Shown: positions 1-64,000 of the stretch, piece by piece | Numbering within the stretch: the first letter of the stretch is position 1 | Layout: every line of letters begins with the position of its first letter | IMG/VR virus record: IMGVR_UViG_3300043493_000130 | Coordinates: 4,348-68,347 of that record | Origin: a virus | Taxonomy: Duplodnaviria > Caudoviricetes | Direction: 5' to 3' (one strand) | DNA: 64,000 bases | Notes under the pieces: model-generated | Databases searched by the model: none | Seen by the model: only the letters and a program-made list of their open reading frames with translations | Told to the model about the DNA's origin: nothing | Made by a program: the position numbers and the translations under genes

Positions 1-1
1 T

Positions 2-2713
2 TATATAGCGCGCGTCGTAACGGGGAAAATCGTTCACCGTGTCGATGATGTCGCGCCGGTTGGTGCCGTCGTTGTTCTCGATTTGAGGCTGCTGGCCGCC
101 CGAGCTTTCGCGAATGACCATGCCAGCGCCAGGGATCTTGTAGACGGCCCCGCCGCCACTGAAGAGCACACCCTGGCCATCGGTCCCGAAATTCAAATTG
201 CCGGTCATGGTATCGCCGGCAAGATCGACTTTGCTCGCGGACAAATCCTCCAGCGAGTCCTGAACGTTGGTTTGGCCGTTGACGTTGGGGATAACCGAGA
301 CGTTGGAGGCTGTCGTCGCCGGACCGCCAATCGCCAAATGCACCCAGGCCGTTCCATCCGAGACCAGCCAGTCGCGCGCGGCGAAGGTTATGCCGGCGGC
401 CGGTCCCGTCGTTGGCGTGCCGGGGACCGTAACGATGACGTAGTGCCCCGCTGCCACTGCGGTCGCGGGCGGCAGTGCTCCGTCGGGATAGCCGGACGCG
501 AGGGTAAAGTCGCACTGCGCATCGGCGGTGCTGGCATCCATGACGCCGACGAGGAGGACAACACCGACTGCTGTCGCGACCAAATCGTCAACGTACCGTT
601 TGTGCGTTGCCTCGCGATCGGCGACCGGAGCTGGCAGCGGCAGTATCAGCGGCCCGGTCATCGTGTCGCCAACCTTCTTGACGAAGTCGGCGGCGGCTGT
701 GTCCACGGCCCACCCGGCGTCTTTGCGTATGTACGCCTGACCGTCTAAAGGAGCCTCGGGCAGATTGATCTGCACCCACTGCGACGAGCTGCCGTCGTTG
801 TAGCGAACGTAGGTGTCACCCGTGAGGCTGTTGAACCAGATTGTATCGTCGACAGGTGCCGCCGGCGGCGTGTCGGAAACAATGACACCGCCCGCTGCGA
901 TAACTTCCTGCCATGTCGAGTTACCGAGAAGATCGCGGACGCGCGCGTAGTGCTTGTCGTCCGGCGGCGGCTCGACGATCGCGCCGGCGAGCAGATCGGT
1001 CGCGAGCGGCACCACCAGCATGCCGTCACCGCCGGAGGCATCGACGTCAGCTGCTTGAGTGGCAGAACGTGGCGGCACGTAAACACCGCCAAGGAATTGC
1101 GGCGCGATGCCGGCCGGCTGCAGGTGGACGATGTCTGGTGTGGTGCTGGTATCCTTGGTCAGGCCGGTGCCGAAGTCGAGCTGCTCGGAAACAAACGGTT
1201 GCCATGCCGGCGGGCCTGCAGCCGGGTTGACCCTTGCGTACTGCACCCCGTCCGCTGGCGCCGGCTCCACGATCGAACCCGCCAGCAGGTTGGTGGCCAG
1301 CGGCACCACCAGCCGGCCATCGCCACCGGAAGTGTCGACGTCGGCACCCTGCGTTGGACTCCGCGGTGGCACCCAAACGCCACCGAGGAATTGAGCCGCG
1401 ATGCCAGCCGGTTGCAGGTGAACGATGTCTGGTGTGGTGCTGGTATCCCGGGTCAGACCGGTGCCGAAGTCGAGCTGCTCGGCGAGAATTCGGGTCCAGT
1501 CGCCGCTGAGAGTCGTGCGCGACCTTGCATACTGCAATCCGTCAGCGGGCGGCTCGACCAGGGTGCCCGCGAAGGCACCTTGCGCAATCGGAGCCGTCAA
1601 TACGCCAGCGGCGCTCAGCGTAAGACCCTGATTGTTATCCCGCACCGGCACCGTGACGCCGCCGATTTCACCCAACGTGTTGGCGATCTGCAGGTTGACG
1701 GTGTTGCCAGTGGCATCGAGACCGATGCCAAAGTTCATGATCGCTACTTCGACATGATTGAACAGCTGAGCCGCGTCATTCCAGATGGCGTAATCGCCCT
1801 CTTTAAGCAAAACGCCATCGAGGCCGGGCGTGCTGCCAAGCGGCGGGGTTTCCGACACCGCAGGATCGGCGCAATCGACAATCCAGTAATCGCCATTGGC
1901 CTTGGCGGGGATAGCGCCGATGTTCGGCACGTTAGGAGCAGGCTGCCACATGCCCTGATAGGTCAGGTCGATCGAGCTGGTCACCGGCGTCCATGAGCTG
2001 ACGCCGGCATTGGTGCGGGTGCGCGCCCACAATTGCCCGGTGCCGTTCTGCGGCTCGACGATGCTGCCAGCCAGCGACTCAGTCGCCAGCGGCGCGGTCA
2101 GTATTCCAAGGCCGGTGTTTAGGTTGAGACCTTGGGAGACCGAACGCGGCGTGATGCGCACGCCGCCAATCTCGTTATTGGTATTGGCGATCTGCAGATC
2201 GATGGTGTTGCCGGTCATTTCCAGACCGATGCCGGCATCGATCGGCGTGCCTTCGATCCACGAGCTGGCCCCGCCTGTGGTGCGCGTGCGGGAATAGATC
2301 AGACCATCCGGCGGCGGCTCGACGATCGAACCCGCGAGCTGATCGGTTGCAAGCGGCACCACCAACTGGCCATCGCCGCCGGAGGTGGCGACGTCGGCAG
2401 CTTGCGTCGGGCTGCGCGGTGGCACCCAGACGCCGCCAAGAAACTGCGGCGCGATACCGGCCGGTTGCAGATGGACGATCGGTGGCGTCGCGGTCTCGTC
2501 CTTGGTCAGGCCGGTGCCGAAATCGAGCCCCTCGGCGGGAGCGACTAACTGCCAAGTACCGTTGACGCGGACATAGGAATTGCCGTCGGCCGGTGCCTCT
2601 TCGGTGACCGGCACCCACGACTCGTTGATGCGGCCATAGCGCTCGCCATCGACCGGCGCTTCGCCGACGATCTCCTGCTCGACCGGCAAAGGGGTTTTGC
2701 TCATGTCGTTCAT
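2..2713 (-). CDS. Large modular fibre-like virion protein (head or tail fibre); partial, runs off the left edge
   Basis: Translated by hand from ATG 2713 (MNDMSKTPLPVEQEIVGEAPVDGERYGRINESW...); no stop seen down to base 2, which is why the ORF track misses it. Contains EAPxDGxxYxR motifs, GDTMTG fibre motifs and internally repeated modules; shares a module with fibre gene 40116-41264. Confidence 0.8.
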   Translation of the reverse strand, partial: MNDMSKTPLPVEQEIVGEAPVDGERYGRINESWVPVTEEAPADGNSYVRVNGTWQLVAPAEGLDFGTGLTKDETATPPIVHLQPAGIAPQFLGGVWVPPRSPTQAADVATSGGDGQLVVPLATDQLAGSIVEPPPDGLIYSRTRTTGGASSWIEGTPIDAGIGLEMTGNTIDLQIANTNNEIGGVRITPRSVSQGLNLNTGLGILTAPLATESLAGSIVEPQNGTGQLWARTRTNAGVSSWTPVTSSIDLTYQGMWQPAPNVPNIGAIPAKANGDYWIVDCADPAVSETPPLGSTPGLDGVLLKEGDYAIWNDAAQLFNHVEVAIMNFGIGLDATGNTVNLQIANTLGEIGGVTVPVRDNNQGLTLSAAGVLTAPIAQGAFAGTLVEPPADGLQYARSRTTLSGDWTRILAEQLDFGTGLTRDTSTTPDIVHLQPAGIAAQFLGGVWVPPRSPTQGADVDTSGGDGRLVVPLATNLLAGSIVEPAPADGVQYARVNPAAGPPAWQPFVSEQLDFGTGLTKDTSTTPDIVHLQPAGIAPQFLGGVYVPPRSATQAADVDASGGDGMLVVPLATDLLAGAIVEPPPDDKHYARVRDLLGNSTWQEVIAAGGVIVSDTPPAAPVDDTIWFNSLTGDTYVRYNDGSSSQWVQINLPEAPLDGQAYIRKDAGWAVDTAAADFVKKVGDTMTGPLILPLPAPVADREATHKRYVDDLVATAVGVVLLVGVMDASTADAQCDFTLASGYPDGALPPATAVAAGHYVIVTVPGTPTTGPAAGITFAARDWLVSDGTAWVHLAIGGPATTASNVSVIPNVNGQTNVQDSLEDLSASKVDLAGDTMTGNLNFGTDGQGVLFSGGGAVYKIPGAGMVIRESSGGQQPQIENNDGTNRRDIIDTVNDFPRYDARYI

Positions 2714-2726
2714 TGTTTGCCGGCCC

Positions 2727-4454
2727 TTATGTGAAAGTGAACTGCAGGCTCAGCGGTGGCGCTACCGGAACGACGTTGTCGTGCGACCCGCCATGCTGGT
2801 GACCGATCCGGATCGTGACCGGAACGGATCCAGCTGTTGCTGGCGGCGTGAGGTCAAACCGGACGTCGCTGCCGTTCACCCAGCGCGTCGGTACTGCCGC
2901 GCCGTTGACGATCACGGTTGCGGTGTTGCCGAAGTTGGCACCGAGCAATTGGACTTCCAGCTGCGCACTGCCGCGCGGCGCAGTGTTCGGCACCAGCGAA
3001 TTGAGCACCGGGTTGAGCACGCACTGCGCTTGCATGGAGTTGGACAGCGCGGTGCCGCTGCGCACCCGCATGTCAAAGGTTCCGGTGGTGGCGTTTGCCG
3101 CACTGGTCGTCGTCGTCAGCGTCGTGGCGTTGACGTACGTCGTCGTCAGCGCCAAGGCCCCACGCATCACCACGCTGGTTGGCGTGAAATTGGAGCCAGT
3201 GTAGGTGATGGTTTTCGGTGCATCGCTGAACCCAACGATGTCCGGGAAGATAGCCGACAAGGCTGGCGTCAGCACCACCTGGGTGAAGTCGAACGGGCAG
3301 GTCGAGACTGACGTGGCGGTGCCGTTGCGCACACCGACGATCGCTCGTCGCGGCGTCGCCTCAGCCGAAGGTCTGGCGGTGAAGCGCAGCTGCGTTGTTG
3401 AGACATAGATGGTGGCGACGGCAGCCCCGTCGACCAGGACGACACTGGTCGGCTGGAAGTTGCTGCCGTTGACAGTGACGACGACATCGGCCGAAAGAAT
3501 TTCGGCGCTGGCCGGCACCAGCGGGCAGAGGATCACCGGCAGCGGAATGGCCGTCAGTGTGAACAGCGGTGCGCCTTGTCCCACGGTGGCACCGTCGCGC
3601 ACGGTAACTTGGGCTTGGCGCGGCAGCGCCTCGGCGGAGGTGTCTGCGGTAAAGCGCAGCGTGGTCGGACTGACGTAGGTGGTGGTGACGTTGGCGCCGT
3701 CCCATTGCAGCACGCAAGTCGGCGTGAATTGCAAACCGGTGGCCGTGACCAGCACGTCGGGCGACAGGCACTGCGCAGTATCCGGATTGATCGAGGTGAT
3801 CATCAGCGGCGGGATCGCCGTGAAGGTGAACGTGGGCGCGCCGAGGCCGGCGGTGGCGCCGTCTTTCACGGTGACGATCGCAGCGCGCGGCGTTAGCTCG
3901 GCCGAGGAGTCCGCCATGTAACGCAACTGCGTCGGGCTGACATAGGTCGTGGCGACGTTGGCGCCGTCCACCATCAGCACGCAGGTTGCGGTGAACACCG
4001 TGCCGTTGACGGTGACCAGCACATCGGGTGACGCGCATTGCGCAGTGTTTGGAACCAGCGAGTTGATGGCGAGAAGCGGTGCTGCCGTGAAGGTGAACCG
4101 GCAGTTACCGGCGGCCGTGGCCGCGCCGTCCCTCACCGTGATGGTTGAGGCTTTCGCCGTCGGCACCGTGCTCGGGCGGATCGGAAACGTCAATTCGCCA
4201 GTGTTAACGAAGGTGGTGGTCTGCGCCACGTTGTCGAGATAGGCGACGCACGAGGCGGTAAAATTCTGGCCGATGACGCGGCAGGTCAGGTCGGCCGAGC
4301 CGCAAATCGCCGTCGACGGAATGGTCGGGCAGATCACCGCCAGGATGGTCGGGTCGAGCGGCGCGCCGCTTCCGGCCGCAGGCGGCCACGGCTCGGGCAA
4401 GGTGCAAGGGGCAGGAGGAGCGCAATTGTCAAAGCATGCGGCAAGCATCCCCAC
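2727..4454 (-). CDS. Six-repeat IPT/TIG (Ig-like) domain protein, probable virion surface protein
   Basis: Six ~90-aa repeats of the form INSLxPxTA...V.VxGxNFxxTxVxxxDGxxVxTTYVSxTxL; AGGGAG RBS upstream of GTG 4454. Confidence 0.8.
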   Translation of the reverse strand: MGMLAACFDNCAPPAPCTLPEPWPPAAGSGAPLDPTILAVICPTIPSTAICGSADLTCRVIGQNFTASCVAYLDNVAQTTTFVNTGELTFPIRPSTVPTAKASTITVRDGAATAAGNCRFTFTAAPLLAINSLVPNTAQCASPDVLVTVNGTVFTATCVLMVDGANVATTYVSPTQLRYMADSSAELTPRAAIVTVKDGATAGLGAPTFTFTAIPPLMITSINPDTAQCLSPDVLVTATGLQFTPTCVLQWDGANVTTTYVSPTTLRFTADTSAEALPRQAQVTVRDGATVGQGAPLFTLTAIPLPVILCPLVPASAEILSADVVVTVNGSNFQPTSVVLVDGAAVATIYVSTTQLRFTARPSAEATPRRAIVGVRNGTATSVSTCPFDFTQVVLTPALSAIFPDIVGFSDAPKTITYTGSNFTPTSVVMRGALALTTTYVNATTLTTTTSAANATTGTFDMRVRSGTALSNSMQAQCVLNPVLNSLVPNTAPRGSAQLEVQLLGANFGNTATVIVNGAAVPTRWVNGSDVRFDLTPPATAGSVPVTIRIGHQHGGSHDNVVPVAPPLSLQFTFT

Positions 4455-6991: not shown

Positions 6992-7498
6992 ATGACCGCA
7001 ACGATTATCCCTTACGAAGACGCCAGCTCAACGTTCGAGCGCGACAAAAAAGTGTTCCACCTCCGCCTTGCCGGCGTCTCGCCACGCCGGATCGCCGAGG
7101 AACTAAGTTGTTCGCTCGACCAAGTCGAGCAGTCGCTAGACCGCATGACCGGCGGCGTGAGCCCGGCGCTTCGCCAGCGCACGATCCTGATGGAGTTGGA
7201 GCGCCTCGACGCCTTGCAAAAGGTGCACTATGCCAACGCCTTGAACGGCCAAATCGGAGCCACCCTCGTGGTCGTCAAGCTCATGGAGAGGCGCTCCCGC
7301 TACCTTGGGCTTGACGCCCCGGTGCGTACCGACGACCCGCTCGGCGGCGCCGGCCAGCGGGAGTCCAGCACCGAGGGGCTCCTGCGCGAGCTCGACCGCA
7401 TCGCCGCCGAGCGCGGCCCGCCGGGCTCCGGCCCTATCATCGAGGCCGAGGTCGTCCCCGAAAGCGCCGAGGCCGCGGATGTACCTCCACGAACGTGA
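6992..7498 (+). CDS. terS: Terminase small subunit
   Basis: N-terminal HTH (RLAGVSPRRIAEEL) and ELERLDAL...LMERRSRYLGLDAP motif; overlaps the TerL start. Confidence 0.75.
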   Translation: MTATIIPYEDASSTFERDKKVFHLRLAGVSPRRIAEELSCSLDQVEQSLDRMTGGVSPALRQRTILMELERLDALQKVHYANALNGQIGATLVVVKLMERRSRYLGLDAPVRTDDPLGGAGQRESSTEGLLRELDRIAAERGPPGSGPIIEAEVVPESAEAADVPPRT

Positions 7499-8825
7499 CT
7501 TTTTTTTCGAGGAGGTCCGGCGCGTCCACGAATTCCGCGACCGCCTCGGCCGCCTGACGCAAGCCGAGCGCGAGACTTTGGCGCAGCGCATGGGCGCCAA
7601 TGCCGTCAACAATTGGAGCGTCGCGGCGCGCGGCGCGCAGCTGCCGCCGTTGAGCTTGGAAAAAGATTTCTGCTGGCTCTTCCTTGGTGGCCGCGGGACC
7701 GGAAAGTCGCGGGCAATGAGTGGCGCCGTTCATATGGCCGTGCGTGCCGGCGTGCGGCGCATCCACGTCATCGGCCCGACCACGGCAGATATTCACGACG
7801 TCTTGCTCGACGGCCCGGCCGGCATATTGCACACTGGCGGCTCCGACCCGGCCCCGCGCTGGCTGCAAAGTCGCCGCCGCCTCGAATGGCCGAACGGCGC
7901 GCACGCGGTCTTCTTTTCCGGCGAGGAACCCGAAAGCCTGCGCGGGCCCCAATGCGAATTGTGCGTGGTCGATGAGATCGCCCGCTGCCGCTACCAGCAA
8001 CTTATTTTTGATCAACTGTTCCTCGGCCTCCGCCTCGGCGCTCGCCCGCGCGTGCTCATTGCAACGACGCCGCGGCCGACGCCGTTTATGAAAAAGCTGC
8101 TCGCCATGAAGGGCGTCAGCATCACCACGGGATCGACCTATGATAATTCCCAGCATCTTTCGCCCGAGTTCATGCGCAAAGTTCGCGAGCTGTACGAAGG
8201 CACGCGCATCGGCCGGCAGGAGCTCCACGGCGCGATGCTGCTCGACCCGCAAAACGCGCTGTTCAAGGACGAGTGGCTGCAATACGACCCGGTGCCCGAG
8301 GAGCTCATTGAGCAGACGACGGTCGGCGTCGACCCGAGCGGCGGCTCGGACGAGATCGGCATTGTTGTCTCGGCTGTGCTGCGAGACGGCCGCCTCGCGG
8401 TGCTTGCCGACCGGACGCTTGTGGCGAGCCCGGCCAAGTGGGGCGACGAGGTGGTGCGCGCGCACGATGACTTCGACTGTGACGACGTGGTGGTCGAGCG
8501 AAATTTCGGCGGGGATATGTGCTCTGACGTTGTCAAGCACGCCGCAGACCGCGCCGCCCAGGCCGGCCGTCGGAAGGACAACATGATAAGGATCAAGGAG
8601 GTCGTCGCTTCGCGCGGGAAGACGATGCGCGCCGAGCCGATCTCGCTGCTGTTCGAGAAAGGAAAAGTGCTGATGCGGCCCGGGCTCGACCAGCTACAAG
8701 GCGAAATGTTATCTTTCAGCCGGGAGTGGGATCGCGCGGTTGATGGCAGTCCCAATCGGCTCGACGCGATGGTCTGGGGCCTCGCGCGGCTCGCAAAAAT
8801 TCAGATGGAAATTCCGATGGCGTGA
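7479..8825 (+). CDS. terL: Terminase large subunit
   Basis: Walker A GGRGTGKS, Walker B CVVDE, ATTPRP motif, RNase H-like nuclease VGVDP...SPNRLDAMVW. Confidence 0.95.
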   Translation: MYLHERDFFFEEVRRVHEFRDRLGRLTQAERETLAQRMGANAVNNWSVAARGAQLPPLSLEKDFCWLFLGGRGTGKSRAMSGAVHMAVRAGVRRIHVIGPTTADIHDVLLDGPAGILHTGGSDPAPRWLQSRRRLEWPNGAHAVFFSGEEPESLRGPQCELCVVDEIARCRYQQLIFDQLFLGLRLGARPRVLIATTPRPTPFMKKLLAMKGVSITTGSTYDNSQHLSPEFMRKVRELYEGTRIGRQELHGAMLLDPQNALFKDEWLQYDPVPEELIEQTTVGVDPSGGSDEIGIVVSAVLRDGRLAVLADRTLVASPAKWGDEVVRAHDDFDCDDVVVERNFGGDMCSDVVKHAADRAAQAGRRKDNMIRIKEVVASRGKTMRAEPISLLFEKGKVLMRPGLDQLQGEMLSFSREWDRAVDGSPNRLDAMVWGLARLAKIQMEIPMA

Positions 8826-8837
8826 TAAAAGGGAGGC

Positions 8838-8890
8838 GGAGCCCGGCACGGCAGTTGTGGCCGGGCTCCTGGGGTCGCCGCAGCGGCCTT
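8838..8890 (-). ncRNA. tigRNA-like unit 1 (single-spacer form)
   Basis: Minus strand AAGGCCGC-UGCG-GCGACC-CCA-GGAGCCCGG-CCA-CAACUGCCG-UG-CCGGGCUCC; same scaffold as units 2-4 but 18 nt shorter. Confidence 0.7.
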
Positions 8891-8897
8891 GCGGGCA

Positions 8898-9297: not shown

Positions 9298-9513
9298 ATG
9301 TCCTGTGGTGGATGCGGTCAGGCGCGCGCTCAGTTTTTTGGTGCCGTCCGGCGCGGCGACCTCGGCGGCGTCGTTCAAGCCGTGGGCACTGCGATCAATA
9401 TCAACATGGACAAAATCCGCGGCGTCGACGTCGAGAAAAAATACGGCGGCGTCAGCAAGTCTCCGATCGTCCCCGCGGTCCCGTACCGGCGGCAGCCGGG
9501 TCGGACAGTGTGA
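9298..9513 (+). CDS. Hypothetical protein (MSCGGC...)
   Basis: GAGGAG RBS; stop overlaps the portal start (TGATG). Confidence 0.6.
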   Translation: MSCGGCGQARAQFFGAVRRGDLGGVVQAVGTAININMDKIRGVDVEKKYGGVSKSPIVPAVPYRRQPGRTV

Positions 9514-16485: not shown

Positions 16486-16496
16486 ACGGAGAGGGC

Positions 16497-16567
16497 GGAG
16501 CCCGGCAATCTTGCCATGGGCATCATCTAATAATTGGCCGGGCTCCTGGGGTCGCCGCAGCGACCTT
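16497..16567 (-). ncRNA. tigRNA-like unit 2 (spacers AUUAUUAGA / UGGCAAGAU)
   Basis: Minus strand AAGGUCGC-UGCG-GCGACC-CCA-GGAGCCCGG-CCA-N9-UG-AUGC-CCA-N9-UG-CCGGGCUCC; 71 nt. Confidence 0.8.
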
Positions 16568-16574
16568 AACGAGA

Positions 16575-19294: not shown

Positions 19295-19414
19295 ATTTGG
19301 GCGCCTCCTATTCATGTGTATATGTCGCATAGCGGCTTCAGCCGGGGTTGCTTTGGGATGCCAAAGATTTGCTTACCCATGCCAAACCCGCTCAATGTGC
19401 GCTAAGGTTGAGCC

Positions 19415-22612: not shown

Positions 22613-22643
22613 CGTCCTAATCTCAAACGGAGGAAATCCGACA

Positions 22644-22748: not shown

Positions 22749-22758
22749 GACTAGAACG

Positions 22759-29988: not shown

Positions 29989-30005
29989 AGCGCGCCGAGA
30001 AAGAC

Positions 30006-30076
30006 GGAGCCCGGCAGCGTCTTCCTGGGTGTCACCATCGAAATGGCCGGGCTCCTGGGGTCGCCGCAGCGGCCTT
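30006..30076 (-). ncRNA. tigRNA-like unit 3 (spacers UUUCGAUGG / GGAAGACGC)
   Basis: Minus strand AAGGCCGC-UGCG-GCGACC-CCA-GGAGCCCGG-CCA-N9-UG-ACAC-CCA-N9-UG-CCGGGCUCC; 71 nt. Confidence 0.8.
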
Positions 30077-30115
30077 GAATAGCTCGTAGCGCAATTCGCA
30101 CGACGGTGTAAGCCA

Positions 30116-37041: not shown

Positions 37042-37042
37042 C

Positions 37043-48518: not shown

Positions 48519-48523
48519 CAGAC

Positions 48524-48592
48524 ATGCAGGCCTGGGCGGACTATTGCGCCGGCAAGGTGGGCGGCGACAACGTCGTCCAGTTCTCGGCGGCG
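48524..48592 (+). repeat. Duplicate of the int 3' end
   Basis: See 48190-48258. Confidence 0.92.
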
Positions 48593-51137: not shown

Positions 51138-51745
51138 CTGCTGCCTCCACGCTGGCTTTTTTCTGAGAATTGAAACACGCCCCACGCCGCCAGCAAGGTC
51201 GCGAGGCATGCACCGCTAATGATGAATAGCCAGGGGATTGCCCGCGGCGGCGTGTATTGAATGGTCCGCACCGGGCGCGCGTCCTCGGCACCAAGCGCGG
51301 AAAATTCGTCCGTCCAGGCGAAGCGCTGTTGATCTTTTGCGCCAAAATTCGGGATCTGTTGTTCGGCGTATAAAGGCAAGGCGGCGGGGGCGAGCGTAAT
51401 TCGGCGGCTGGTCTCTCCCCCGTCGCCCTTGGCGCTGCTGTTGGGCCGCGGGTGCGATTCCCAATGCAGCTCCGACTTTTCGAGCTTCCGGCGGCCCGGA
51501 AACCAGCACCTCCTTTCGGAAATCTGGCGCCACTGCCAGTAGGCTCCATCCTTGAGGGGCACCGCCCGGCACTCGAGCGCGCCCGCGGCGCTGATGGAGA
51601 GCACGATCGTGAGCACGATCACGACCAAATAGGTGAGCCCGGCAGCGAGAGGGCGGCCGGGCTCGGCGGCTGGACGCAAAACATTGCGGCCGCATTCGCG
51701 GGGGATGTGTATTTGTTTGGCGCACACGACGAGTTCAATCCGCAT
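51134..51745 (-). CDS. Membrane protein with periplasmic C...YWQWR....CW motif
   Basis: Two hydrophobic segments around ECR...GAYWQWRQISERRCWF. Confidence 0.55.
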   Translation of the reverse strand: MRIELVVCAKQIHIPRECGRNVLRPAAEPGRPLAAGLTYLVVIVLTIVLSISAAGALECRAVPLKDGAYWQWRQISERRCWFPGRRKLEKSELHWESHPRPNSSAKGDGGETSRRITLAPAALPLYAEQQIPNFGAKDQQRFAWTDEFSALGAEDARPVRTIQYTPPRAIPWLFIISGACLATLLAAWGVFQFSEKSQRGGSR

Positions 51746-52310
51746 TGATGTGAGAGGGCATTGGTGCGTTGACGTCCGACCACGACCGCCATCCGGCGGC
51801 CGTGAGTTCGGTGGAATAGACTTCGCCGCGCGGCTTGATCGCGCGCCATGCTTGGTCACAGAAGACCCGGTAATGGAGCATGTCGCACGCCGCGCCCTCC
51901 GGAGACTTGGGAGTTTCGATCCACGCGAGGCGCGCGTCGGGGAAAAACAGTTTGTCGCCCCATTGCCGCGCGAGCGAATGGTCATAAGGCGCGGAGGCGA
52001 TATCTAAGCCAAGCGTCTGCAGCGCGTGCACGCTCATCAAGCGCCGCGCCGGCCAAAGAAGCTGCGGCGCGCGGAACGAAAGGCTCAAATGCAGGCACCG
52101 CTCGTAGTCGGGATTTTTGAACCAACCACCGGAGTGGTGGCCGACGTCGCGTGTGAAGAAGATGACGGTGCCGGTCTGTCCGTGAAAGTGGCAGCAGGCG
52201 GCGAAGTAGGCGCTCGAGCGCGGAGAATTGAGGAGGCCGTCAAACACGCCGCGCGCCGCGCGCTGCCGGATGAAGCCGATCATGTTTTCGGGGATTTCGA
52301 GCATCGTCAT
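51735..52310 (-). CDS. Hypothetical protein
   Basis: RD.GHH..GWFKNPDYERC.HLS.S motif. Confidence 0.7.
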   Translation of the reverse strand: MTMLEIPENMIGFIRQRAARGVFDGLLNSPRSSAYFAACCHFHGQTGTVIFFTRDVGHHSGGWFKNPDYERCLHLSLSFRAPQLLWPARRLMSVHALQTLGLDIASAPYDHSLARQWGDKLFFPDARLAWIETPKSPEGAACDMLHYRVFCDQAWRAIKPRGEVYSTELTAAGWRSWSDVNAPMPSHINAD

Positions 52311-53314
52311 GTGGCTCCGTTCTCGCTTGGCATGGCGTCGAGGTCCGCCCGATGCTTATCGAGGGCGGCTTGAAGATGTTTGGACATTTTGGGCGCGGCG
52401 GCTTTCATCTCGGCAAGCGCACCATCATTCTGCGTAAGCCACTGGTCGATCTCGGCGGCGGTGCGCGCCGAGCGCGCGGCGGCGATGAAGCTTTGGCCCC
52501 AGGCGCGCCAGTCGATTTGCCCGTCGGCGAGGTAGGCGAGCGGGAGCGCGTTCGGCGGCTCCGGTTCCGCGGCGGTGATCTCGCCGGTGTCCGGGTCGAC
52601 GGTCTCCGCGGGTGGTGCCGGGGCTGGCGGCGCTGGCGGCGTCCACTTTGGCTCAGGCGGTTCGGGGCGCGTTTCGACCATCTGACCGGCCATCTCCTCG
52701 GCGGTTAAAGCCCCCTCTTCTGGGAATGCGGCGCGGAGCGCGAAAGCTTTCGCGACCTTGGCGAGCTGGCCGCGCGGCCGCTTTAACCACTGCGCGTTTG
52801 GGAGCTCCGTGCCGCCCTGGCGGCCATACGCTTCGAGCCAGTAGACCTCTTCCGCGAAAGCGCGCGGCGCGCCGTCAACAATTTTGTAGACAGTGATCGA
52901 ACACCATTCCGGGAATTCGACCTTTTGCTCGACCTTGACCCAGCTGTCTTTTCTCTTGACCTCGCCGCGGAAGGTGCGCGTGTCCGTCGGGCCCCAGACG
53001 GGGCGGTCCATGCCGGCCCAAAGGCCGGTCCGTGCGGCCGTGATCTCGACCTCGGCTATCGAGGGCCAGATCGTTTCCACATTGCGGCCGAGCTCCGAGT
53101 TCCAGACCGGGACGATATTGACCGGACGTTTTAAGACGTCGAGGCCGCGCGCGCGGCAGTAGTCGAGGGCAAGAAGAATTGACCCGGCGCTGCGCGCCAT
53201 GGGGAAGATCGCTTCAGTGAGGACGCGCCAGCGGCCGGCGTCGAGGTCGGCGACGCCCGCGGGCATCGGAAGCCGGAATTCCGGCGCGGCGGTGGCGAGG
53301 GCGGTGGTGGTCAT
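52307..53314 (-). CDS. bet: Phage single-strand annealing protein, Bet/RecT family
   Basis: LDYCRARGLD.LKR.V.IV; RITAART-like; W.KRPRGQL.K.A.A.ALR.AFP. Confidence 0.88.
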   Translation of the reverse strand: MTTTALATAAPEFRLPMPAGVADLDAGRWRVLTEAIFPMARSAGSILLALDYCRARGLDVLKRPVNIVPVWNSELGRNVETIWPSIAEVEITAARTGLWAGMDRPVWGPTDTRTFRGEVKRKDSWVKVEQKVEFPEWCSITVYKIVDGAPRAFAEEVYWLEAYGRQGGTELPNAQWLKRPRGQLAKVAKAFALRAAFPEEGALTAEEMAGQMVETRPEPPEPKWTPPAPPAPAPPAETVDPDTGEITAAEPEPPNALPLAYLADGQIDWRAWGQSFIAAARSARTAAEIDQWLTQNDGALAEMKAAAPKMSKHLQAALDKHRADLDAMPSENGAT

Positions 53315-53316
53315 TG

Positions 53317-53856
53317 TTAGTTGCGTCTTTCGTAGAGTTTGCGCACCTCGGCTTCTTGCAACACCGTGCCGACAATCTCGCCGGGCTTCAGCTTGTCCGC
53401 GATCCGCGCCAGCCAAGGCGACATCTTAGTGCTCATCCGCCTGCATTCGCGCCCGGTGCAGTCACGCAGCGCCTTTCCGTTCGGGAGCACCAAGTCGAGC
53501 AGGATTTGCTGTGCCGTTGCGGCCGCCGCTTGTACGGCGCCCTCCTTGATGCGTTCCGCCCGCTGTTGCGCGGCTCGCCGGGAAGCCTCAATCCGATTCG
53601 CCCGCGACGGAGCGCCCGGGATCGGAAAGTAGTCCAACAGACTGCGATAGTTGTTGGTGAACGCGTGCTCAATGGCCTCCTCCAGAATTTCCTCATCGTT
53701 CAGTGCCTGCTGGCGGAAGTCCGCGCGGATGGTCTTGCGATCCTCCGGCGAGTGCGGGTTTGCCACCCCCTTCATCAGTTCCATCAGCGCTGTACGCAAA
53801 GGCGAACGGTCGCTTTGCTTGGTGGCACCGTATGCGCGGTCTACTTCAAACGTCAT
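53317..53856 (-). CDS. Hypothetical protein
   Basis: LLDLVLPNGKALRDCTG motif. Confidence 0.65.
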   Translation of the reverse strand: MTFEVDRAYGATKQSDRSPLRTALMELMKGVANPHSPEDRKTIRADFRQQALNDEEILEEAIEHAFTNNYRSLLDYFPIPGAPSRANRIEASRRAAQQRAERIKEGAVQAAAATAQQILLDLVLPNGKALRDCTGRECRRMSTKMSPWLARIADKLKPGEIVGTVLQEAEVRKLYERRN

Positions 53857-54817
53857 GCTGTCCTCCAATGTCAGCCGGCAATCCAAAGTGCGCGCGCAAG
53901 GCCGCCGGCAGTACCTTGAACATGCGCAGAGCGGCGGGGCCGTCCTTCCATTCGCAAGGTCCGTAGAGCTCGCGGTAGGCCAGGACGGCGGCGCGGTATT
54001 CGATATTCAAACGCTGGCTTATTTCGCGGCGTCGTTCCGGATTCTCGGCCGCCCAGCGTTGGGCCATTTCACGACGGAGCTCCGGATTTTCCCAATATCG
54101 CTGTCGTGCCTGCTCACGCCTGAGCTCAAGGTTCTTGGCATAATCCCGGCGTGAAAAGTTACGGCTGAATTCGCGCCGGCGTTCCGGATTTTTAGCGATC
54201 CAGCGCTTCATGCTTTCACGGTTAAGCTTCCGGCGGCACTTTTGCGAGCACGTTTGGCTGCGATGGGTGAGAAACTCCGTGCCGCAAACGCGGCAGGACG
54301 CGGTCCGGGGCGGGTGGCGCCTGGCATACGATTGGCGCCCTCGCTCTCTACAGTATTCGCGGTACGTGACATCATGCTGCAGCCGATATTTCCGACGTTT
54401 GTTTATCCACACCCGGTCAAGCCGTTGACGCCTTAGCTCATTAATGTGGTCGCGATGCTCAGCACGCCGTTGGCGGCTCCTTTCCTTCGCCAGTTCCGGA
54501 TTTCTAATACGCCACCGACGCGCATGTGCACGCTTATGCTTTAGCCTGAGTTCCCGACGACAGAATTTCGAGCAGGTCATGGCGTTATGACCTTTACCCC
54601 TGGCGACGAACTCATTTTCACAGATGCAACAAGCGCGCGGTGGTAATTCCCGGCGCCGTCGTTCGCGGCTTAGGCGATAATACTTGCGCGCCCTTTCGTG
54701 CGCCCTTTCCCGACTGCAATCCGGCGAGCACGTCACGGGGGGGCCGCGGCCCTTGAGGATAAACCCCTTTCCGCAAACCCGGCACTTGCGCATAACCGGT
54801 GGTTTCGTTTTGCTCAT
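53846..54817 (-). CDS. Basic multi zinc-finger protein (CxxC...TCSxxC x3), no nuclease motif seen
   Basis: CRVCGKGF..TCSPDC; CCICENEF..TCSKFC; CRVCGTEF..TCSQKC; Arg-rich W..xNPE repeats. Confidence 0.7.
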   Translation of the reverse strand: MSKTKPPVMRKCRVCGKGFILKGRGPPVTCSPDCSRERAHERARKYYRLSRERRRRELPPRACCICENEFVARGKGHNAMTCSKFCRRELRLKHKRAHARRWRIRNPELAKERSRQRRAEHRDHINELRRQRLDRVWINKRRKYRLQHDVTYREYCRERGRQSYARRHPPRTASCRVCGTEFLTHRSQTCSQKCRRKLNRESMKRWIAKNPERRREFSRNFSRRDYAKNLELRREQARQRYWENPELRREMAQRWAAENPERRREISQRLNIEYRAAVLAYRELYGPCEWKDGPAALRMFKVLPAALRAHFGLPADIGGQHDV

Positions 54818-55302
54818 GGCGATTGCTCGCGCGTGCGGATGACAGCCTTTTTGATGTTGTCGGGCAGTTCGCGCGCCGGTTCGACTTCCACCAGCTTGCC
54901 GTCGCGAATTTCTAAGACCGGCTGCGCAACCGCCTTCGTCATCTCGGCCAAGACCCAGAACAGATCCGCGCGCGTTTCCGCTGCGACGGCCACCGGATCG
55001 GTCCAGCTTGTTGGGACCGGGTCGCCCTCGGTGTAATAGCATTCGTGAATGGCGTAGTTGACGTCCGCCCCGTCCTCGCTGCGGATCACCCGATAATTCC
55101 AATTCACGCTCGCCTCCGATTGCGGTTTAGGGATCACGGCGCCGTCCGCACGCGCGACCTCAGCCCAGGCCGCGGCCGCGCTAGCGGCGTCGGCGAGCGC
55201 CTCATCCACCGTCCCCCCCATCGCCGTGCAGCCGGGCAAATCAGGAATGACGACGCCGTAAGCGCCGGGCTCGCCATCGACGATGGCGCGGTAGCGAGTC
55301 AT
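54814..55302 (-). CDS. HicB-like N-terminal domain fused to a WNYRV-type phage domain
   Basis: YGVVIPDLPGCTAMG.TVDEAL.DA..A followed in frame by NWNYRVIRS...IHECYY. Confidence 0.72.
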   Translation of the reverse strand: MTRYRAIVDGEPGAYGVVIPDLPGCTAMGGTVDEALADAASAAAAWAEVARADGAVIPKPQSEASVNWNYRVIRSEDGADVNYAIHECYYTEGDPVPTSWTDPVAVAAETRADLFWVLAEMTKAVAQPVLEIRDGKLVEVEPARELPDNIKKAVIRTREQSP

Positions 55303-56117
55303 GTCAGGACCTTTATTGACACCGCGCGTGCGCGGTTGCGCTTGACGATCGTGCCGCCGCTGATGAGTTCGCCGCAGTCGTCGGGCAAAAGTTTTTTCAC
55401 GTCGGCGCTCGCGGCGGCGTGCAGCTCGGCCGCGGCGCGCGTCTCGCGCCATTGCGCAAGATTCCATTGCATGGTTGCACGCCAGTTCAGATTTTCGGTG
55501 GCGGGATCGTCGAGGTCGATTTTGGTCCAACGCTCGGGCGGCGGCGGGAGCGGGGGGAGCGGCACCGGCGGCGTCAGGTTCTCGACGCAGGCCCAAAACT
55601 GGTCGATGCGAAGCCAGATGCTTTCCTCATAATCCGGCGTGATGTTGGCAAACAATTCCTGCGGCTCGGCGCCGCCGTGGACGACGACGAGGGCGGCGAA
55701 CTCGGCCTCGGGCACGCAGGCGCGCTGCACGACGAGCTGCGGCGTGTAATAGGCGAGCCGGTCGTCGAGCCCTAAGCGGGAGTCGATCCACTTGGCGTCG
55801 AGGACGGCGCGGTCGCTGGCGCGGTAGCCGTCGAGCGTCGCGGCGACGTGCGGCCGCGTCGGGTGAAAGACGACTTCGCCGCGGCGCGAGATTTCCGATT
55901 TGGTTTTTTGCTCGCGCCAGTCGAGAGCGAGGCCTTCGACGTGCGAGCCGAGCGCCATCGGCCAGCTCTTCGAGAAGTCCTCGGGCTCCCACGTCGGGTC
56001 GCCGACCAATTCCTTCCACTTCGAGAGGATCGCCGCGCTGTTGCCGGAGATGAGCTGGGGCACGAAGGACGCGGTGATTTTTCCATCGCGGAGGATTTTT
56101 TGAGCGGGGCTCAGCAT
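55299..56117 (-). CDS. YqaJ-like viral exonuclease
   Basis: RDGKITAS; G.HVE; ATLDG; DAK; YY.PQL..Q; partner of Bet. Confidence 0.88.
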   Translation of the reverse strand: MLSPAQKILRDGKITASFVPQLISGNSAAILSKWKELVGDPTWEPEDFSKSWPMALGSHVEGLALDWREQKTKSEISRRGEVVFHPTRPHVAATLDGYRASDRAVLDAKWIDSRLGLDDRLAYYTPQLVVQRACVPEAEFAALVVVHGGAEPQELFANITPDYEESIWLRIDQFWACVENLTPPVPLPPLPPPPERWTKIDLDDPATENLNWRATMQWNLAQWRETRAAAELHAAASADVKKLLPDDCGELISGGTIVKRNRARAVSIKVLT

Positions 56118-57132: not shown

Positions 57133-57431
57133 GCGACGGCACATGCCCGCATTGCGGCCGGCCGCTGCTCGCGGCGCGCCTCGGCGTCCGCCTCTCCCCG
57201 CTCAAGACGCGCATCTTCGACGCCCTCACGCGCGCCGGGCCGGACGGCATCGACGCGGACGAATTATTCGCGATGGTTTTTTCCGGGCGGGCGGTGCTGC
57301 GCACGGTGCTCAAGTCGCACGTCAGTCAGATCAACGAGCTGCTCGCGGAGACCGACTACCGGATCGTCGGCGTGCGCGGGCAAGGGCGCTGGTACACGCT
57401 CGTGCACAGGAAAGTGGAGGAGGCGGCATGA
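57129..57431 (+). CDS. Zn-ribbon + winged-helix DNA-binding protein
   Basis: CPHCG; LSPLKTRIFDAL; LKSHVSQINELL; IVGVRG.G. Confidence 0.75.
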   Translation: MSDGTCPHCGRPLLAARLGVRLSPLKTRIFDALTRAGPDGIDADELFAMVFSGRAVLRTVLKSHVSQINELLAETDYRIVGVRGQGRWYTLVHRKVEEAA

Positions 57432-58306
57432 GGAAGCATGTCAAAGTTCTGGCGAATTTTCTAGGAGCGGCCAAGGAATTAACCGGCGAATATGTCGACC
57501 TCGCCGAGATCACGGAGAACGAGCAGAATCAAATTCGGCTTAGCCTCACATCGCGGCCCGACCGCAAGGAGACCGCGAAGCTGATGGCGGCGAAGGGAAT
57601 GTCCACCCGCGAGATCGCAAAGATCACAGGGTGGCACTTCACCACGATTGCGGAGGACTTGCGTGTAGGAAAACCTACAAAATCTGTAGGAAATCCTACA
57701 CCACCATCCACCACCCGCGCCGACAAGGACGAGCGCGCCGCAGAGGTAGCAGCGGCGGCGGCGGAAGAGGGCGTCACACCGGCGCCCACGGGCCAGTATC
57801 GCATCATCTATGCCGATCCGCCTTGGTCTTACGGCAACACGATGCCGAAGGGCACAACGGAGCCGCGCGATCACTATCCAGTCATGGAATTGCAAGCGAT
57901 CTGCGACCTCCCGGTCAGGGATTGGGTCGAGGACAACGCGGTGTTGTTCTTGTGGGTGACCTCACCAATCCTCTTTGACTCGCGCGACGTCGTTGAAGCG
58001 TGGGGCTTCGAGTACAAAGGCTCGTTTATTTGGGACAAGATCAAGCACAACATGGGGCATTACAATTCGGTGCGCCACGAGCTTCTTTTGATCTGCACGC
58101 GCGGATCATGCCAGCCCGATAAGCAGCAACTGTTTGACAGCGTGCAAAGCATCGAGCGCGGCAAGCACAGCGAAAAGCCCGTCGACTTCTTCGACATCAT
58201 CGAAACTAACTACACGCACGGCCGCAAACTACAAATCTTTGGCCGCCGCAAGCGTGAGGGGTGGGAGACCTATGGACACGTTGCCGAGCTAGAGGCTGCG
58301 GAGTGA
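57428..58306 (+). CDS. HTH + MT-A70 family adenine methyltransferase
   Basis: YRIIYADPPW; AVLFLWVT; WGFEYK; HSEKP; LQIFGR. Confidence 0.92.
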   Translation: MRKHVKVLANFLGAAKELTGEYVDLAEITENEQNQIRLSLTSRPDRKETAKLMAAKGMSTREIAKITGWHFTTIAEDLRVGKPTKSVGNPTPPSTTRADKDERAAEVAAAAAEEGVTPAPTGQYRIIYADPPWSYGNTMPKGTTEPRDHYPVMELQAICDLPVRDWVEDNAVLFLWVTSPILFDSRDVVEAWGFEYKGSFIWDKIKHNMGHYNSVRHELLLICTRGSCQPDKQQLFDSVQSIERGKHSEKPVDFFDIIETNYTHGRKLQIFGRRKREGWETYGHVAELEAAE

Positions 58307-58929
58307 TGAACGATATTCCCCAGTACCCCGACGCGCCCGACCCGCAAACCTACGAGCACGGGATGGAATATCAGGATTGGGTACGCCCACGCCTCGCGTG
58401 CGTCGGCTTCAACGTGCAAGTCAACACGTCGAAAAAATTCCAACTGCAACAAGGCGAGAGCGCGCAGGGCGTCGAGATCAAGCTGGACAATCGCTGCTGC
58501 ACCCCTCCTTACAATCAAGTCTCCATCGAGATTGAAGAGAAGAGCCGGCGGTCGATGGAGCGATGGACGCCGAGCGGAATCTTCGCCGCCGACAATCACC
58601 TCTGGTATGTCGTCGGCAGCTACAAGATCGTCTTCATATTCGCGCGCAAACACCTGAAGTCGATCTTCCGTCATGAAAATCCGAGAGTGGTCGAATACAA
58701 CGGGACCATGCGCCGGTTTTTCATTCCCGCGCGCCGTGCCCTTGCCGTTGCCGGCGTCGTACTCGCGACCAGGGATTCTCCGTTCGGCCAGCAGCTTGCC
58801 CTTCAGTTCGAAGGCAGCACCAAGTCGCTGTTCGGATGGGACGGCGGCGAGCACCAGATCGTGCGCGCCCGGCCCAACGGGGACAATCTGGTGCTGGAAG
58901 TTTCACAAAAGCTCACGGATGCAACATGA
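58306..58929 (+). CDS. PD-(D/E)xK nuclease-like protein
   Basis: G.EYQD; VEIKLD; SIEIEEK; W.PSGI; coupled to MT-A70. Confidence 0.65.
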   Translation: MNDIPQYPDAPDPQTYEHGMEYQDWVRPRLACVGFNVQVNTSKKFQLQQGESAQGVEIKLDNRCCTPPYNQVSIEIEEKSRRSMERWTPSGIFAADNHLWYVVGSYKIVFIFARKHLKSIFRHENPRVVEYNGTMRRFFIPARRALAVAGVVLATRDSPFGQQLALQFEGSTKSLFGWDGGEHQIVRARPNGDNLVLEVSQKLTDAT

Positions 58930-59880: not shown

Positions 59881-60771
59881 ATGGACGACATCGGCGAACG
59901 AGATGCCCTCGCCATCGGCAGGCTTTACAGCAGCGCGCGAGGGTCGAGCAGCGGCCGTGTTTTTTACCTCAAGGACGCGGGTGACCGCCTGCTGCTCAAA
60001 AAGGAGTCGCTTGGCCACGGCCTCTGGCTTGCATGGCTTCGCAGCAATCAAAGCCTGCTCGGCCTGACACCTCGCGCGGCGCAAAATCTGATCCAGGGCG
60101 CGCAATGGCTGGCCTCTAATTGGCAGATCGCTAACAGGCTCGAAGAAATTGTCACCGACCCTTTCGCCACCGGCGAGGCTCTCGCGGCAGCAGACGAAAT
60201 CAGGCAGCTCATCGCTGCTCAATTCCGGCCGGCAGTTCGCGGGACGCTTGGCCGGCGGCAGCAGCGGATGGAGTGGTACACGCCGCACGAATATATCGCG
60301 CTCGCCCGCGCTGTGCTCGGCGACATTGACATCGACCCGGCCTCTACCGAGTACGCGCAGGAGACGGTCAAGGCACGGCAGTTCTTCGACAAAGCGCAAA
60401 ACGGGCTGCTGAATCCATGGTACGGGCGCGTGTGGCTCAACCCGCCTTACGCGCAGCCGCTGATCAGCAGATTCATCAACAAGCTGCTCATGGAGTGGAA
60501 TGCCGGGCGGATTCAGTCCTGCATTACGCTCACTCACAATTACACCGACAGCGTATGGTTTCACGACGCTGCGGCCGCTGCCGACGCGGTTTGCTTCACG
60601 CAAGGGCGCATCAAGTTCTACGATCCGGACGGCGAGCTCGCCAAGCCGACACAAGGCCAGGCCTTTTTCTATTTTGGCTCTGAGGTCGATACGTTCAAGC
60701 AAACATTTGGGCGCGTTGGCCTGATCGTCAGGTCAGACGAATTGTCCCGGCGGCGGATGGTTGCGCCATGA
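59881..60771 (+). CDS. DUF3102-like N-terminus + phage Dam-type N6-adenine methyltransferase
   Basis: G..L...KE.LGHG.WL.W; EWYTP; IDIDPAS; VWLNPPY. Confidence 0.9.
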   Translation: MDDIGERDALAIGRLYSSARGSSSGRVFYLKDAGDRLLLKKESLGHGLWLAWLRSNQSLLGLTPRAAQNLIQGAQWLASNWQIANRLEEIVTDPFATGEALAAADEIRQLIAAQFRPAVRGTLGRRQQRMEWYTPHEYIALARAVLGDIDIDPASTEYAQETVKARQFFDKAQNGLLNPWYGRVWLNPPYAQPLISRFINKLLMEWNAGRIQSCITLTHNYTDSVWFHDAAAAADAVCFTQGRIKFYDPDGELAKPTQGQAFFYFGSEVDTFKQTFGRVGLIVRSDELSRRRMVAP

Positions 60772-61598: not shown

Positions 61599-62990
61599 AT
61601 GGCGGACGAGGAAAAGCCCGACAACGTCATCCCGCTGGTGCCGAAAAAGCCGACGGCGGCCAAGGGCGACGTCGGCGACCCCGGCTTCGCCATCACCGCC
61701 GAAATGATGCTTAGCAAATTCGAGGAGCGCTATGCCGGCAAGCTCCGCTTCGTCCCCGCTTGGGGCTTTTGGCTCGAGTGGACGGGCAAGGTTTGGAGCC
61801 GCGACTATTGCGCCGTCAACAAGGTGGTCACGCTCCTCGCCGAGCTCGGCAAGGAGCGCAAGAACAAGGACCGCACCAAAATCGACTCGCACCACATGAT
61901 CAGCGGCACCGAGCGCCTCGCCCGCAGCTCGCCGGTCTTCTCCGCCGCGGTCGAGCGCTTCGATGCGGATCCGTGGCTGCTCAATACCCCCGGCGGCGTC
62001 GTCGAGCTCCAGACCGGGAATTTGCGGCCGGGCCGGCCCGAGGACTACTGCACCAAATTAACCGCGGCCGCGCCGGACTTCGACGCCCCCGCCCCGCTCT
62101 GGGACAAATTCATTAAAACCGTCACCGGCGGCGACGACGCCCTCGCCGAATACTTGCTCCGCGTCCTCGGATACTGCCTGACCGGCGAAACTAGCGAGCA
62201 ATGCCTGTTTTTCCTGTTCGGTACCGGCGCCAACGGCAAGTCGGTATTCTTGAATACCGCCCAGCATATCCTCGGCGACTACGCCGCCACCGCCGCCATG
62301 GAAACCTTCGCCCACACCGTCCATGAAAAGCACGCGCAGGACTTGGCCTCGCTCCGCGGCGCCCGCTTGGTCCTCGCCTCCGAAACCGAGGAAAGCAAGG
62401 GCTGGAACGAAGCCAAGGTCAAGCAGCTCACCGGCGGCGATAAGATCCGCGCTAACTTCATGCGCCAGGACTCGTTCGAATACCGCCCCGCTTTTAAGCT
62501 CCTCATCGCCGGCAACCATAAGCCAAAGCTCCGCTCCGTCGACGAAGCCATCCAACGCCGCCAGCAAATCATCCCGTTCGCCATCACGATCGAAAAGCGC
62601 GACACCGCCCTCACCGCCAAGCTCCGCGCCGAAGCCGGCCCAATCCTCGCCGCCATGGTCCGCGGATGCCTCGCCTGGCAGGCCGAGCGGCTCAATCCCC
62701 CCGAGGCCGTCCTGGCGGCGGTCAAGGACTACCTCGAAGAGGAGGACATCCTCGGCCAATGGCTCGACGAATGCTGCACCCTCTCACCCGGCGCCTTTGC
62801 ATCAACCGAAGACCTCTTCGGCTCATGGAAAATCTGGGCCGAAAACCACGGCGAACCCCTCGGCAAGCAAGCCGGCCTCACCCGCCGCCTCAAGAACAGA
62901 CCCGGCCTCCGCTACACGAAAAAGCCGCGCCGAGGCTTCAACGGAATATCAACCCACGCAACTCTTAAGGATGCAGATGACCAAATCTAA
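61599..62990 (+). CDS. P4/D5-family primase-helicase (D5_N + SF3 helicase)
   Basis: FDADPWLLNTPGG; FGTGANGKS Walker A; RLVLASE; GGDKIRA.FMR.D.FEY; AGNHKP. Confidence 0.93.
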   Translation: MADEEKPDNVIPLVPKKPTAAKGDVGDPGFAITAEMMLSKFEERYAGKLRFVPAWGFWLEWTGKVWSRDYCAVNKVVTLLAELGKERKNKDRTKIDSHHMISGTERLARSSPVFSAAVERFDADPWLLNTPGGVVELQTGNLRPGRPEDYCTKLTAAAPDFDAPAPLWDKFIKTVTGGDDALAEYLLRVLGYCLTGETSEQCLFFLFGTGANGKSVFLNTAQHILGDYAATAAMETFAHTVHEKHAQDLASLRGARLVLASETEESKGWNEAKVKQLTGGDKIRANFMRQDSFEYRPAFKLLIAGNHKPKLRSVDEAIQRRQQIIPFAITIEKRDTALTAKLRAEAGPILAAMVRGCLAWQAERLNPPEAVLAAVKDYLEEEDILGQWLDECCTLSPGAFASTEDLFGSWKIWAENHGEPLGKQAGLTRRLKNRPGLRYTKKPRRGFNGISTHATLKDADDQI

Positions 62991-63336: not shown

Positions 63337-63364
63337 CTATGCAAGCCTGCGGGGACTCCGCAGG

Positions 63365-63594
63365 GGCGCTTTGAAACCCCTGAGCTATGTGAACCACGCA
63401 TAGCTCGGAACTTTGGGGGCGCTTTGAGCCGTTTCCGGGGCGCTTTTTTTTGCAATGCGCCCCCGCCTAAGTATCTCAAGAGTCTTGCCTAAAGGCGCTT
63501 AGAGCGCTTTAGGCGCTTTATTACCTACTATACGATACACACACGCCTGTATAGAGTACATACCCGAATCGCGCCTCAAAGCGCCCAAAGCGCC
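63365..63594. other. Probable replication origin: converging GGCGCTTT iterons around an AT-richer core
   Basis: Six direct copies (63365, 63418, 63439, 63494, 63503, 63512) and two inverted AAAGCGCC (63578, 63587), downstream of the D5 helicase. Confidence 0.65.
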
Positions 63595-64000
63595 CTGATC
63601 TAGCTAGCGGCCGGGCCCGAGGCCCCCTTTGCTATGCGCTCGCCGCGCGGCGAGCGCCCTTTTTGGGTAAAAGCGTCTCGCTCAGACGCTCCGCTCCCTC
63701 GGAAAGCCTTGCGGAGCAAGGCTTTCCTCCTCCGCTGCCCGCCGTTCCCCCAACTCTTTCCCTATACTCGACCGCGTTCAACCTTCCTTGCCCCGCGCTT
63801 AAGTCTTTCTAAAGCCTCGGAAAAACAGGCCTTGGGCGCGAAGCTCTCGCAAAAGGGCGCGGGGAGGGCTCCTGTAGCCGATCGGGTTTTTTGGGTTTTG
63901 AGGGGCCTTGGAGGGGGGGCATGCGGGTTTTGCATGCACGACAGAATCGGCGGTGGAAAAAAAACTTTTTTGGGGGCAGGGGGCGGCATACGGCGCCCCC

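Follow-up and report, generated by a model that had tools for sequence, protein, structure and literature searches.

In the stem-loop form of tigRNA described for TIGR-Tas systems, a palindromic stem replaces the edge repeats, two spacers of 8-12 nt each lie between a box C (CCA) and a box D (UG), and a CUU occurs near the base of the stem (PMC12045711; bioRxiv 10.64898/2026.09.09.750476). Published TIGR surveys start from tas genes, and TIGRFinder works around tas loci; units without a neighboring tas are therefore invisible to such surveys, and no mention of orphan tigRNAs was found in the published literature that we searched. Here we analyze a stretch of 64,000 nucleotides (the window, bases 4348-68347 of the 68,347-bp viral record IMGVR_UViG_3300043493_000130) that carries five units resembling the stem-loop design. 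The reading that we favor, at about even confidence, is that these are orphan satellite units of a phage stem-loop TIGR-TasA system whose Tas effector is not encoded by the phage itself.

Virus-borne orphan mini-CRISPR arrays and solitary repeat units rely on host Cas, and RNA anti-CRISPRs are phage-encoded repeat mimics. The units described here are similar to the orphan arrays in that a virus carries guides without an effector, which would then be made elsewhere, and in a possible role in virus-virus conflict; they differ in that the protein family is Nop/Tas rather than Cas and in that no spacer match to a competitor was found. Similarly to RNA anti-CRISPRs, they are effector-less, repeat-like phage RNAs that could bind a foreign effector, but they keep variable spacers and occur in the same form in Tas-encoding phages. 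IS110 bridge RNAs and box C/D sRNAs (small RNAs) also have guides flanked by box C/D-like motifs, which a Nop-type domain binds (PMC12045711). The units share such guide segments and flanks, whereas a DEDD/Transposase_20 protein, K-turns and the two-loop bridge architecture are absent here.

The closest likeness is to the TasA clade of stem-loop TIGR-Tas systems. As in that clade, there is a palindromic stem, a pair of 9-nt spacers flanked by CCA and UG, and a 9-nt loop repeat; most units here have a C/U-rich tract with CUU near the stem base, and identical units in other phages adjoin a TasR/TasH homologue of ~270-300 amino acids (aa). Differences from that clade are that tas is missing from the record, that the units stand alone at distances of 7.7-13.5 kb rather than in tandem, that two of them have a single spacer, and that four of the five run antisense to late structural genes.

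Guide-like units had been noticed in an earlier note on this DNA, and they do exist. A repeat of 34-72 nt occurs in four dispersed copies, U1 to U4 (8838-8891, 16496-16568, 30005-30077 and 41279-41351), which are not in tandem (start-to-start spacing 7677, 13509 and 11274 nt), and a fifth, degenerate copy (U5) adds to these. All four late-region units lie 11-17 nt behind the stop codons of plus-strand late genes and are antisense to them. Read on the minus strand, U2, U3 and U4 have the same order of parts, namely a small hairpin, CCCA, the stem arm GGAGCCCGG, CCA-N9-UG, 4 nt, CCA-N9-UG, the stem arm CCGGGCUCC and a C/U-rich tail. Box C is CCA, box D is UG, the loop repeat is UGAUGCCCA, and the 9-nt spacer length is exact in all units. 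Two spacers within the 8-12-nt range and with box C/D flanks are present in U2, U3 and U4, and one such module in U1 and U5. A CUU lies ~3-12 nt past the 3' stem arm in U1, U3 and U4 and not in U2.

A covariance model of the units (R1) was used on the whole contig, and the five units that it scored are on the minus strand. U2 (16490..16568; 62.5 bits, fold z-score -3.1) and U3 (30005..30077; 54.2 bits, stem folds) are intact dual-spacer units in which every box and the loop repeat are kept and all spacers differ from one another. U2 reads CCA-N9-UG-AUGC-CCA-N9-UG within 9-bp stem arms and lies directly behind, and antisense to, the major capsid gene; U3 has the loop variant UGACACCCA and lies just upstream of, and antisense to, a 1015-aa tape-measure-like gene. 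U1 (8826..8891; 35.2 bits, E 3e-5, stem folds) is a single-spacer half unit made up of the stem arm GGAGCCCGG, CCA, 9 nt, UG and the stem arm CCGGGCUCC, with a spacer-less hairpin (GGCCGC-UGCG-GCGACC) upstream and a C/U-rich tail downstream; it is found 12 nt behind the large-terminase stop codon and is antisense to the terminase. U4 (41279..41351; 55.6 bits) is a dual-spacer unit behind a tail-fiber gene and has intact boxes and loop repeat. It is probably decaying, because its stem has two mismatches (CUAGGCUCC) and its upstream hairpin is altered. An interpretation of the units as coding repeats or ordinary terminators was rejected by their minus-strand reading and by the family of such units. 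No unit is present behind the capsid gene in five capsid relatives (61-78% aa identity), which makes U2 an insertion specific to this lineage. Exact 19-mers taken from the flank of the unit had no match in viral contigs.

The fifth unit differs from the others in its location. U5 (51629-51670, or 51629..51710 with the remnant of a type-1 unit; 25.3 bits and, for the whole contig, E 0.004) is a degenerate single-spacer unit, GAGCCCGG-CCG-N9-UG-CCGGGCUC-ACCUAU, in which CCG replaces CCA and for which the fold z-score is -4.4; the type-1 remnant (GCGGCCGC...GCCGCC) precedes it. It lies in the early region at the recombination module and shares its strand with RecT and YqaJ. Because this is where Tas-encoding relatives keep tas and arrays, the position of U5 suggests that it is a remnant of a lost tas-plus-array module.

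These units belong to a larger family. A search of IMG/VR with the pattern GGCCA-N9-TGATGCCCA-N9-TGCC returned 121 units in 64 viral stretches, many of them multi-copy; as background, there were 0.04 dual units per shuffled contig and none in 911 kb of DNA from other phages. At least four further stem pairs beyond GG/CC were present in 90 of 107 distinct units. In an alignment of 77 units, which was pre-filtered for the stem and in which covariation is inflated somewhat, 90.9% of stem cells were paired (68.4% when shuffled, 35-47% in slid controls), 131 cells carried double changes as compared to 38.5 expected (0/500 shuffles reached the observed value), and 8 of 10 stem pairs had changes on both sides. 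Arrays of Tas-encoding phages consist of two alternating unit types with different stems (GCGGUCG/CGACCGC and G(A/C)GCCCGG/CCGGGC(U/G)C), arranged back to back with a period of ~110 nt (e.g., L050 1175-1700 and L019 3900-4800), and in the array periods the downstream arm GCGGUCGC of one is complementary to the upstream arm GCGACCGC. Each unit of the window resembles a single period of this kind in which the first unit has been reduced to a hairpin without a spacer. Relative to their flanking genes, solitary units are antisense in some loci and sense in others. Pattern matches in the genome collection were mostly chance or coding; true units were found in two Xanthobacteraceae metagenome-assembled genomes (MAGs) and one Verrucomicrobiaceae MAG. 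In the Verrucomicrobiaceae MAG (L082 6565-7998) the unit lies within the reading frame of a Tas homologue, which agrees with the report of intragenic tigRNAs by Xu et al. (bioRxiv 10.64898/2026.09.09.750476).

All-against-all BLAST of the open reading frames (ORFs) of the fetched loci revealed one protein cluster that directly adjoins units at 26 loci. A profile built from these 26 phage proteins (A2) matched TasH chains at E 1.7e-8 and, at E 6e-26, PDB 9MTY, which is the TasR ribonucleoprotein of Faure et al. 2025 (PMC12045711); the cluster proteins are therefore Tas and, since they are mostly 270-300 aa long, TasA-like. Five of six members tested with Pfam had sub-threshold Transposase_20 matches at the same position. 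In the relatives, tas and arrays are situated in the early region, adjoining the YqaJ and RecT genes; in L050 and L019, Tas is encoded at 284-1159 and 2272-3339, respectively. The stem-loop TIGR-TasA system is widespread in high-GC temperate phages.

The earlier note had seen no recognizable Nop/Tas effector in the window, and our searches confirm this for both the window and the whole record. Across six frames of the whole 68,347-bp contig, PF01798 (Nop), PF02371 (Transposase_20) and PF01548 (DEDD_Tnp_IS110) gave 0 matches at E<=1 and the A2 Tas profile gave none at E<=10; in a local hmmsearch of A2 against all ORFs of at least 60 aa, the best E was 0.12. As positive controls, A2 detected Tas at E 3.8e-125 in the relative G001 and at 1e-66 to 1e-131 in 25 other records, and PF02371 detected the G001 Tas at E 1.5e-5. 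The record encodes no Tas protein and has no head-to-tail array at or in a tas gene, as is found in a complete TIGR-Tas locus; its units are solitary, with no tas to adjoin. The recombination module (52307..56117, minus strand), which consists of RecT (52307-53416) and a YqaJ-like exonuclease (55299-56117) and is the site of tas and arrays in relatives, has no tas here. A canonical tas with an array just outside the window would have pointed to an ordinary TIGR locus, and we looked for it in the 4.3 kb outside the window. They encode another IPT/TIG protein besides small ORFs and contain no tas, array or unit. The earlier view that the element extends beyond the window is correct on the left, where 4,347 bp more contain neither tas nor array, but not on the right, where the window ends with the contig.

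Individual candidates were also considered and rejected. Two minus-strand ORFs by U2 (16700-17347 and 17452-17823) are shadows of plus-strand genes with ribosome-binding sites rather than a hidden tas. A 418-aa ORF similar to HNH homing endonucleases (53846-55102, minus strand; PHROG 1271 at E 1e-10) has no Nop part, and an assignment as TasH was dismissed, as it had no PDB sequence match and an hhalign probability of 0.05% against the Tas profile.

Units distant from tas, or present without it, are not limited to this phage. Among Tas-encoding relatives, G001 has a unit ~20 kb from its tas and G019 has units ~42 kb and further away. The 87,982-bp genome G050 (IMGVR_UViG_3300015371_000009), complete with direct terminal repeats, has six dispersed units (contig positions 5663, 10333, 14759, 14867, 37969 and 58618) with intact boxes, 9-nt spacers and 9-10-bp stems, and encodes no recognizable Tas. 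Its only Transposase_20 match, a weak one, was considered spurious because it is antisense to a sheath gene homologue and whole-protein support is absent. At least five units and no Tas were found in G002 (72% complete). None of the proteins common to the three Tas-less unit-bearing records is effector-like. It is possible, if doubtful, that these records represent a recurrent class of guide-only temperate phages that carry intact, dispersed tigRNA genes and no tas, and that reprogram or titrate the TasA of related prophages or co-infecting phages. Such a class would comprise this phage and G050, and probably G002.

The lack of a Tas could also mean that the effector was missed, either because tas lies in a part of the genome that is absent from the record or because the partner is too divergent, and we consider this quite improbable. 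Since the record is classed as linear and lacks terminal repeats, a tas-bearing piece could be missing from it; no terminal overlap was found at the contig ends, and joining these ends does not extend the frame that leaves the right one. However, its completeness is estimated at 100% by CheckV, and the RecT/YqaJ module, the tas site of the relatives, is fully present. The earlier proposal that the effector is elsewhere in the phage is therefore not upheld for the 68-kb record, and an unassembled remainder is less likely because of the CheckV estimate and because the terminal-repeat-complete G050 is Tas-less as well. Several ORFs are still without an assigned function (including P0002 and P0004, described below, and 19415-19948, 22808-23833, 43065-44426 and 58261-58929), which would leave room for a divergent partner, yet A2 spans TasR to TasH and found none, and the Tas-less records share no effector-like protein.

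Four unassigned ORFs, all on the minus strand, had been put forward as possible hiding places of such a partner. The comparison with A2 speaks against this, with hhalign probabilities of <1% for all four (P0001 to P0004). P0001 (6136..6993, 285 aa; hhalign probability 0.1%) is similar to the UvrD-helicase N-terminal region, with an Atlas feature score of 0.97 and TM-scores of 0.65-0.69 to UvrD-helicase clusters, and was rejected as a Tas. P0002 (44984..45505, 173 aa) has no Tas similarity (hhalign probability 0.05%), no Pfam or PHROG match and no Atlas match >=0.9. P0003 (51735..52310, 191 aa) belongs to a large phage family with 634 homologues; its AlphaFold2 model (predicted local distance difference test, pLDDT, 84) has an alpha/beta fold with no PDB fold match, and it was rejected as a partner since neither Tas nor dual units were found at 80 loci of other phages (911 kb). 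P0004 (53317..53886, 189 aa) is located between RecT and the HNH gene. Its all-alpha model (pLDDT 85) had no Foldseek match at E 0.001 and no VIA-align match at Z 5, and, with the low hhalign probability, a role as partner is unsupported; neither its model nor that of P0003 matches Tas, Nop or IS110 proteins. A P0004 homologue with 46% identity (L013 5073-5696, minus strand, corresponding to G002 22469-23173) is encoded directly upstream of a four-unit mini-array on the Tas-less G002 contig. This neighborhood is a loose lead, and the proximity would fit a missed effector.

A different view of the same absence is that the units have no RNA-guided role at all, being either relics of a lost or transferred TIGR module or strong GC-rich hairpins kept as 3' stabilizers of late mRNAs or as terminators of transcription in the antisense direction. 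In favor of this view, the U4 stem is broken, U5 is degenerate and has CCG, U1 and U5 have lost one spacer module, and no promoter match was found for U2-U4. The antisense position of the late-region units so close behind stop codons and the C/U-rich tail that follows the stem on the minus strand would fit as well. We nevertheless regard this explanation as unlikely. U2 and U3 keep all boxes, the loop repeat and exact 9-nt spacers, and the spacers are all different; the Tas-less but complete G050 keeps six intact units, which is more than decay predicts; and in the closest relatives the capsid site has no hairpin.

The units might also act as anti-TIGR decoys, that is, as tigRNA look-alikes that would sequester or divert the Tas made by resident prophages or competitors. 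Units are present while the effector is absent, their stem and boxes are the same as in units of Tas-encoding phages, which suggests structural compatibility with a foreign Tas, spacer-less hairpins and single-spacer half units occur, and Tas-less carriers recur (G050 and G002), all of which would fit a decoy. On the other hand, the units are few, and their spacer pairs all differ, a feature for which a pure decoy would have no need. Satellites of the same kind occur in Tas-encoding phages, so the form is not specific to Tas-less genomes, and no Tas-targeted site is known in this phage. No specific observation favors a decoy function, which was proposed by analogy with RNA anti-CRISPRs and seems very unlikely.

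Judged from the sequence comparisons, a Tas acting in trans would be the best-supported functional hypothesis, with relics or exapted hairpins next and a missed effector or decoys less likely. A trans-Tas role is favored because the design is identical to that of Tas-linked units and because intact orphans recur in a complete genome. The borrowed Tas suggested in the earlier note is plausible in this respect, as stem, boxes, loop repeat and spacer length are as in Tas-adjoining units. The lineage may once have had, or exchanged DNA with, a tas-plus-array module in the RecT/YqaJ early region, and single units (spacer-less hairpin, one type-2 unit and linker) would have been copied into intergenic gaps of the late operon; the same copying of single units may have occurred in Tas-encoding relatives. 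To be active, the intact U2 and U3, and perhaps U1, would need minus-strand transcription and loading by a compatible TasA, which a co-resident prophage or a co-infecting relative could supply. Loaded units might then lead to RNA-guided DNA binding or repression, while U4 and U5 would be decaying.

A number of observations weigh against a trans-acting role. The lack of terminal repeats leaves the possibility of a missing tas-bearing piece noted above. Four of the five units run antisense to the late operon. U1 alone showed a sigma70-like antisense promoter match (TTGCCA-16-TATCCT, 8925->8898), with no such match on the tigRNA strand for the other units. Spacer pairs had no target with <=1 mismatch in 783 kb of own and related phage DNA, and the four 2-mismatch spacer matches in these 783 kb are at chance level. 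Spacers of 9+9 nt carry too little information to call targets, and a collection-wide target scan would be expected to return about 18 chance hits. Single-spacer tigRNAs were found not to guide cleavage (PMC12045711), and both U1 and U5 are of this type. In the case of U4, the broken stem is not formed in the minimum-free-energy fold (z +0.64).

The remainder of the record is the ordinary gene set of a temperate myovirus, as shown by Pfam and PHROG scans of ~70 ORFs, with a G+C content of 58-69% (2-kb windows). The late region contains genes for the large terminase (7305-8825), portal (9312-10790), amidase (10806-12302), a Mu-F-like protein (12311-13060), prohead protease (14460-15155), major capsid (15136-16485), tail tube (28783-29199), the tape-measure-like protein (30116-33163), baseplate (32955-39310) and fibers (39945-44426). 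Between the Mu-F-like and protease genes, ORF 13239-13874, which has no Pfam match, contains perfect 33-nt tandem repeats (13322-13579). A 62-nt direct repeat (23925-23986 and 24232-24293, 85% identity) with a GC-rich hairpin encloses a small minus-strand ORF (24015-24212). Two homing-endonuclease-like genes have internal repeats, namely the HNH gene (53846-55102, minus strand) and a GIY-YIG gene (18476-19330, minus strand) located in a late-region stretch of lower GC. The left end encodes a 1132-aa protein between two IPT/TIG-repeat proteins (L001 2211-3962, L001 3662-7060 and window 2727-4454, all minus strand); these genes run opposite to the late operon.

Downstream of the fiber genes lies the integrase (46993-48264). 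Directly 5' of it, a 314-aa ORF (46027-46971, plus strand) consists of three tandem Arm-DNA-binding domains (PF13356, 3 stretches, E 9.5e-52; DNA repeat of ~280 nt in 2.9 copies) without a catalytic domain. The last 81 nt of the integrase gene (48178-48258) are repeated with 88% identity 334 nt downstream (48512-48592), and this repeat may be linked to the attachment site or to a past recombination. A D5-type primase-helicase (61599-62990) and a Prim-Pol gene are also encoded, as are four DNA methyltransferases (20133-22467, 57143-58306 and 59881-60771), two of them N6_N4 enzymes behind a ParB-like gene, one MT-A70 and one Dam-like. Rfam and tRNA scans found nothing. A megablast search against annotated phages found no relative, and a metagenome search for closer relatives returned none with >78% capsid identity. 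For host assignment, the capsid protein was compared to 301 Xanthobacteraceae genomes, where the only matches, at ~30% identity, were uninformative.

These data show that a large phage family of stem-loop units can be retrieved with a simple DNA pattern, that satellites can lie tens of kilobases from tas, and that at least two complete or near-complete phage genomes carry units without Tas. If the units are relics, they would be a record of the loss of a TIGR module and of the spread of its units within genomes. If guide-only phages form a class, they would carry an RNA-only weapon or regulator in phage-phage conflict. Should the orphan units be active in trans, they would provide the first natural hint that TIGR-TasA is used in interactions between related phages.

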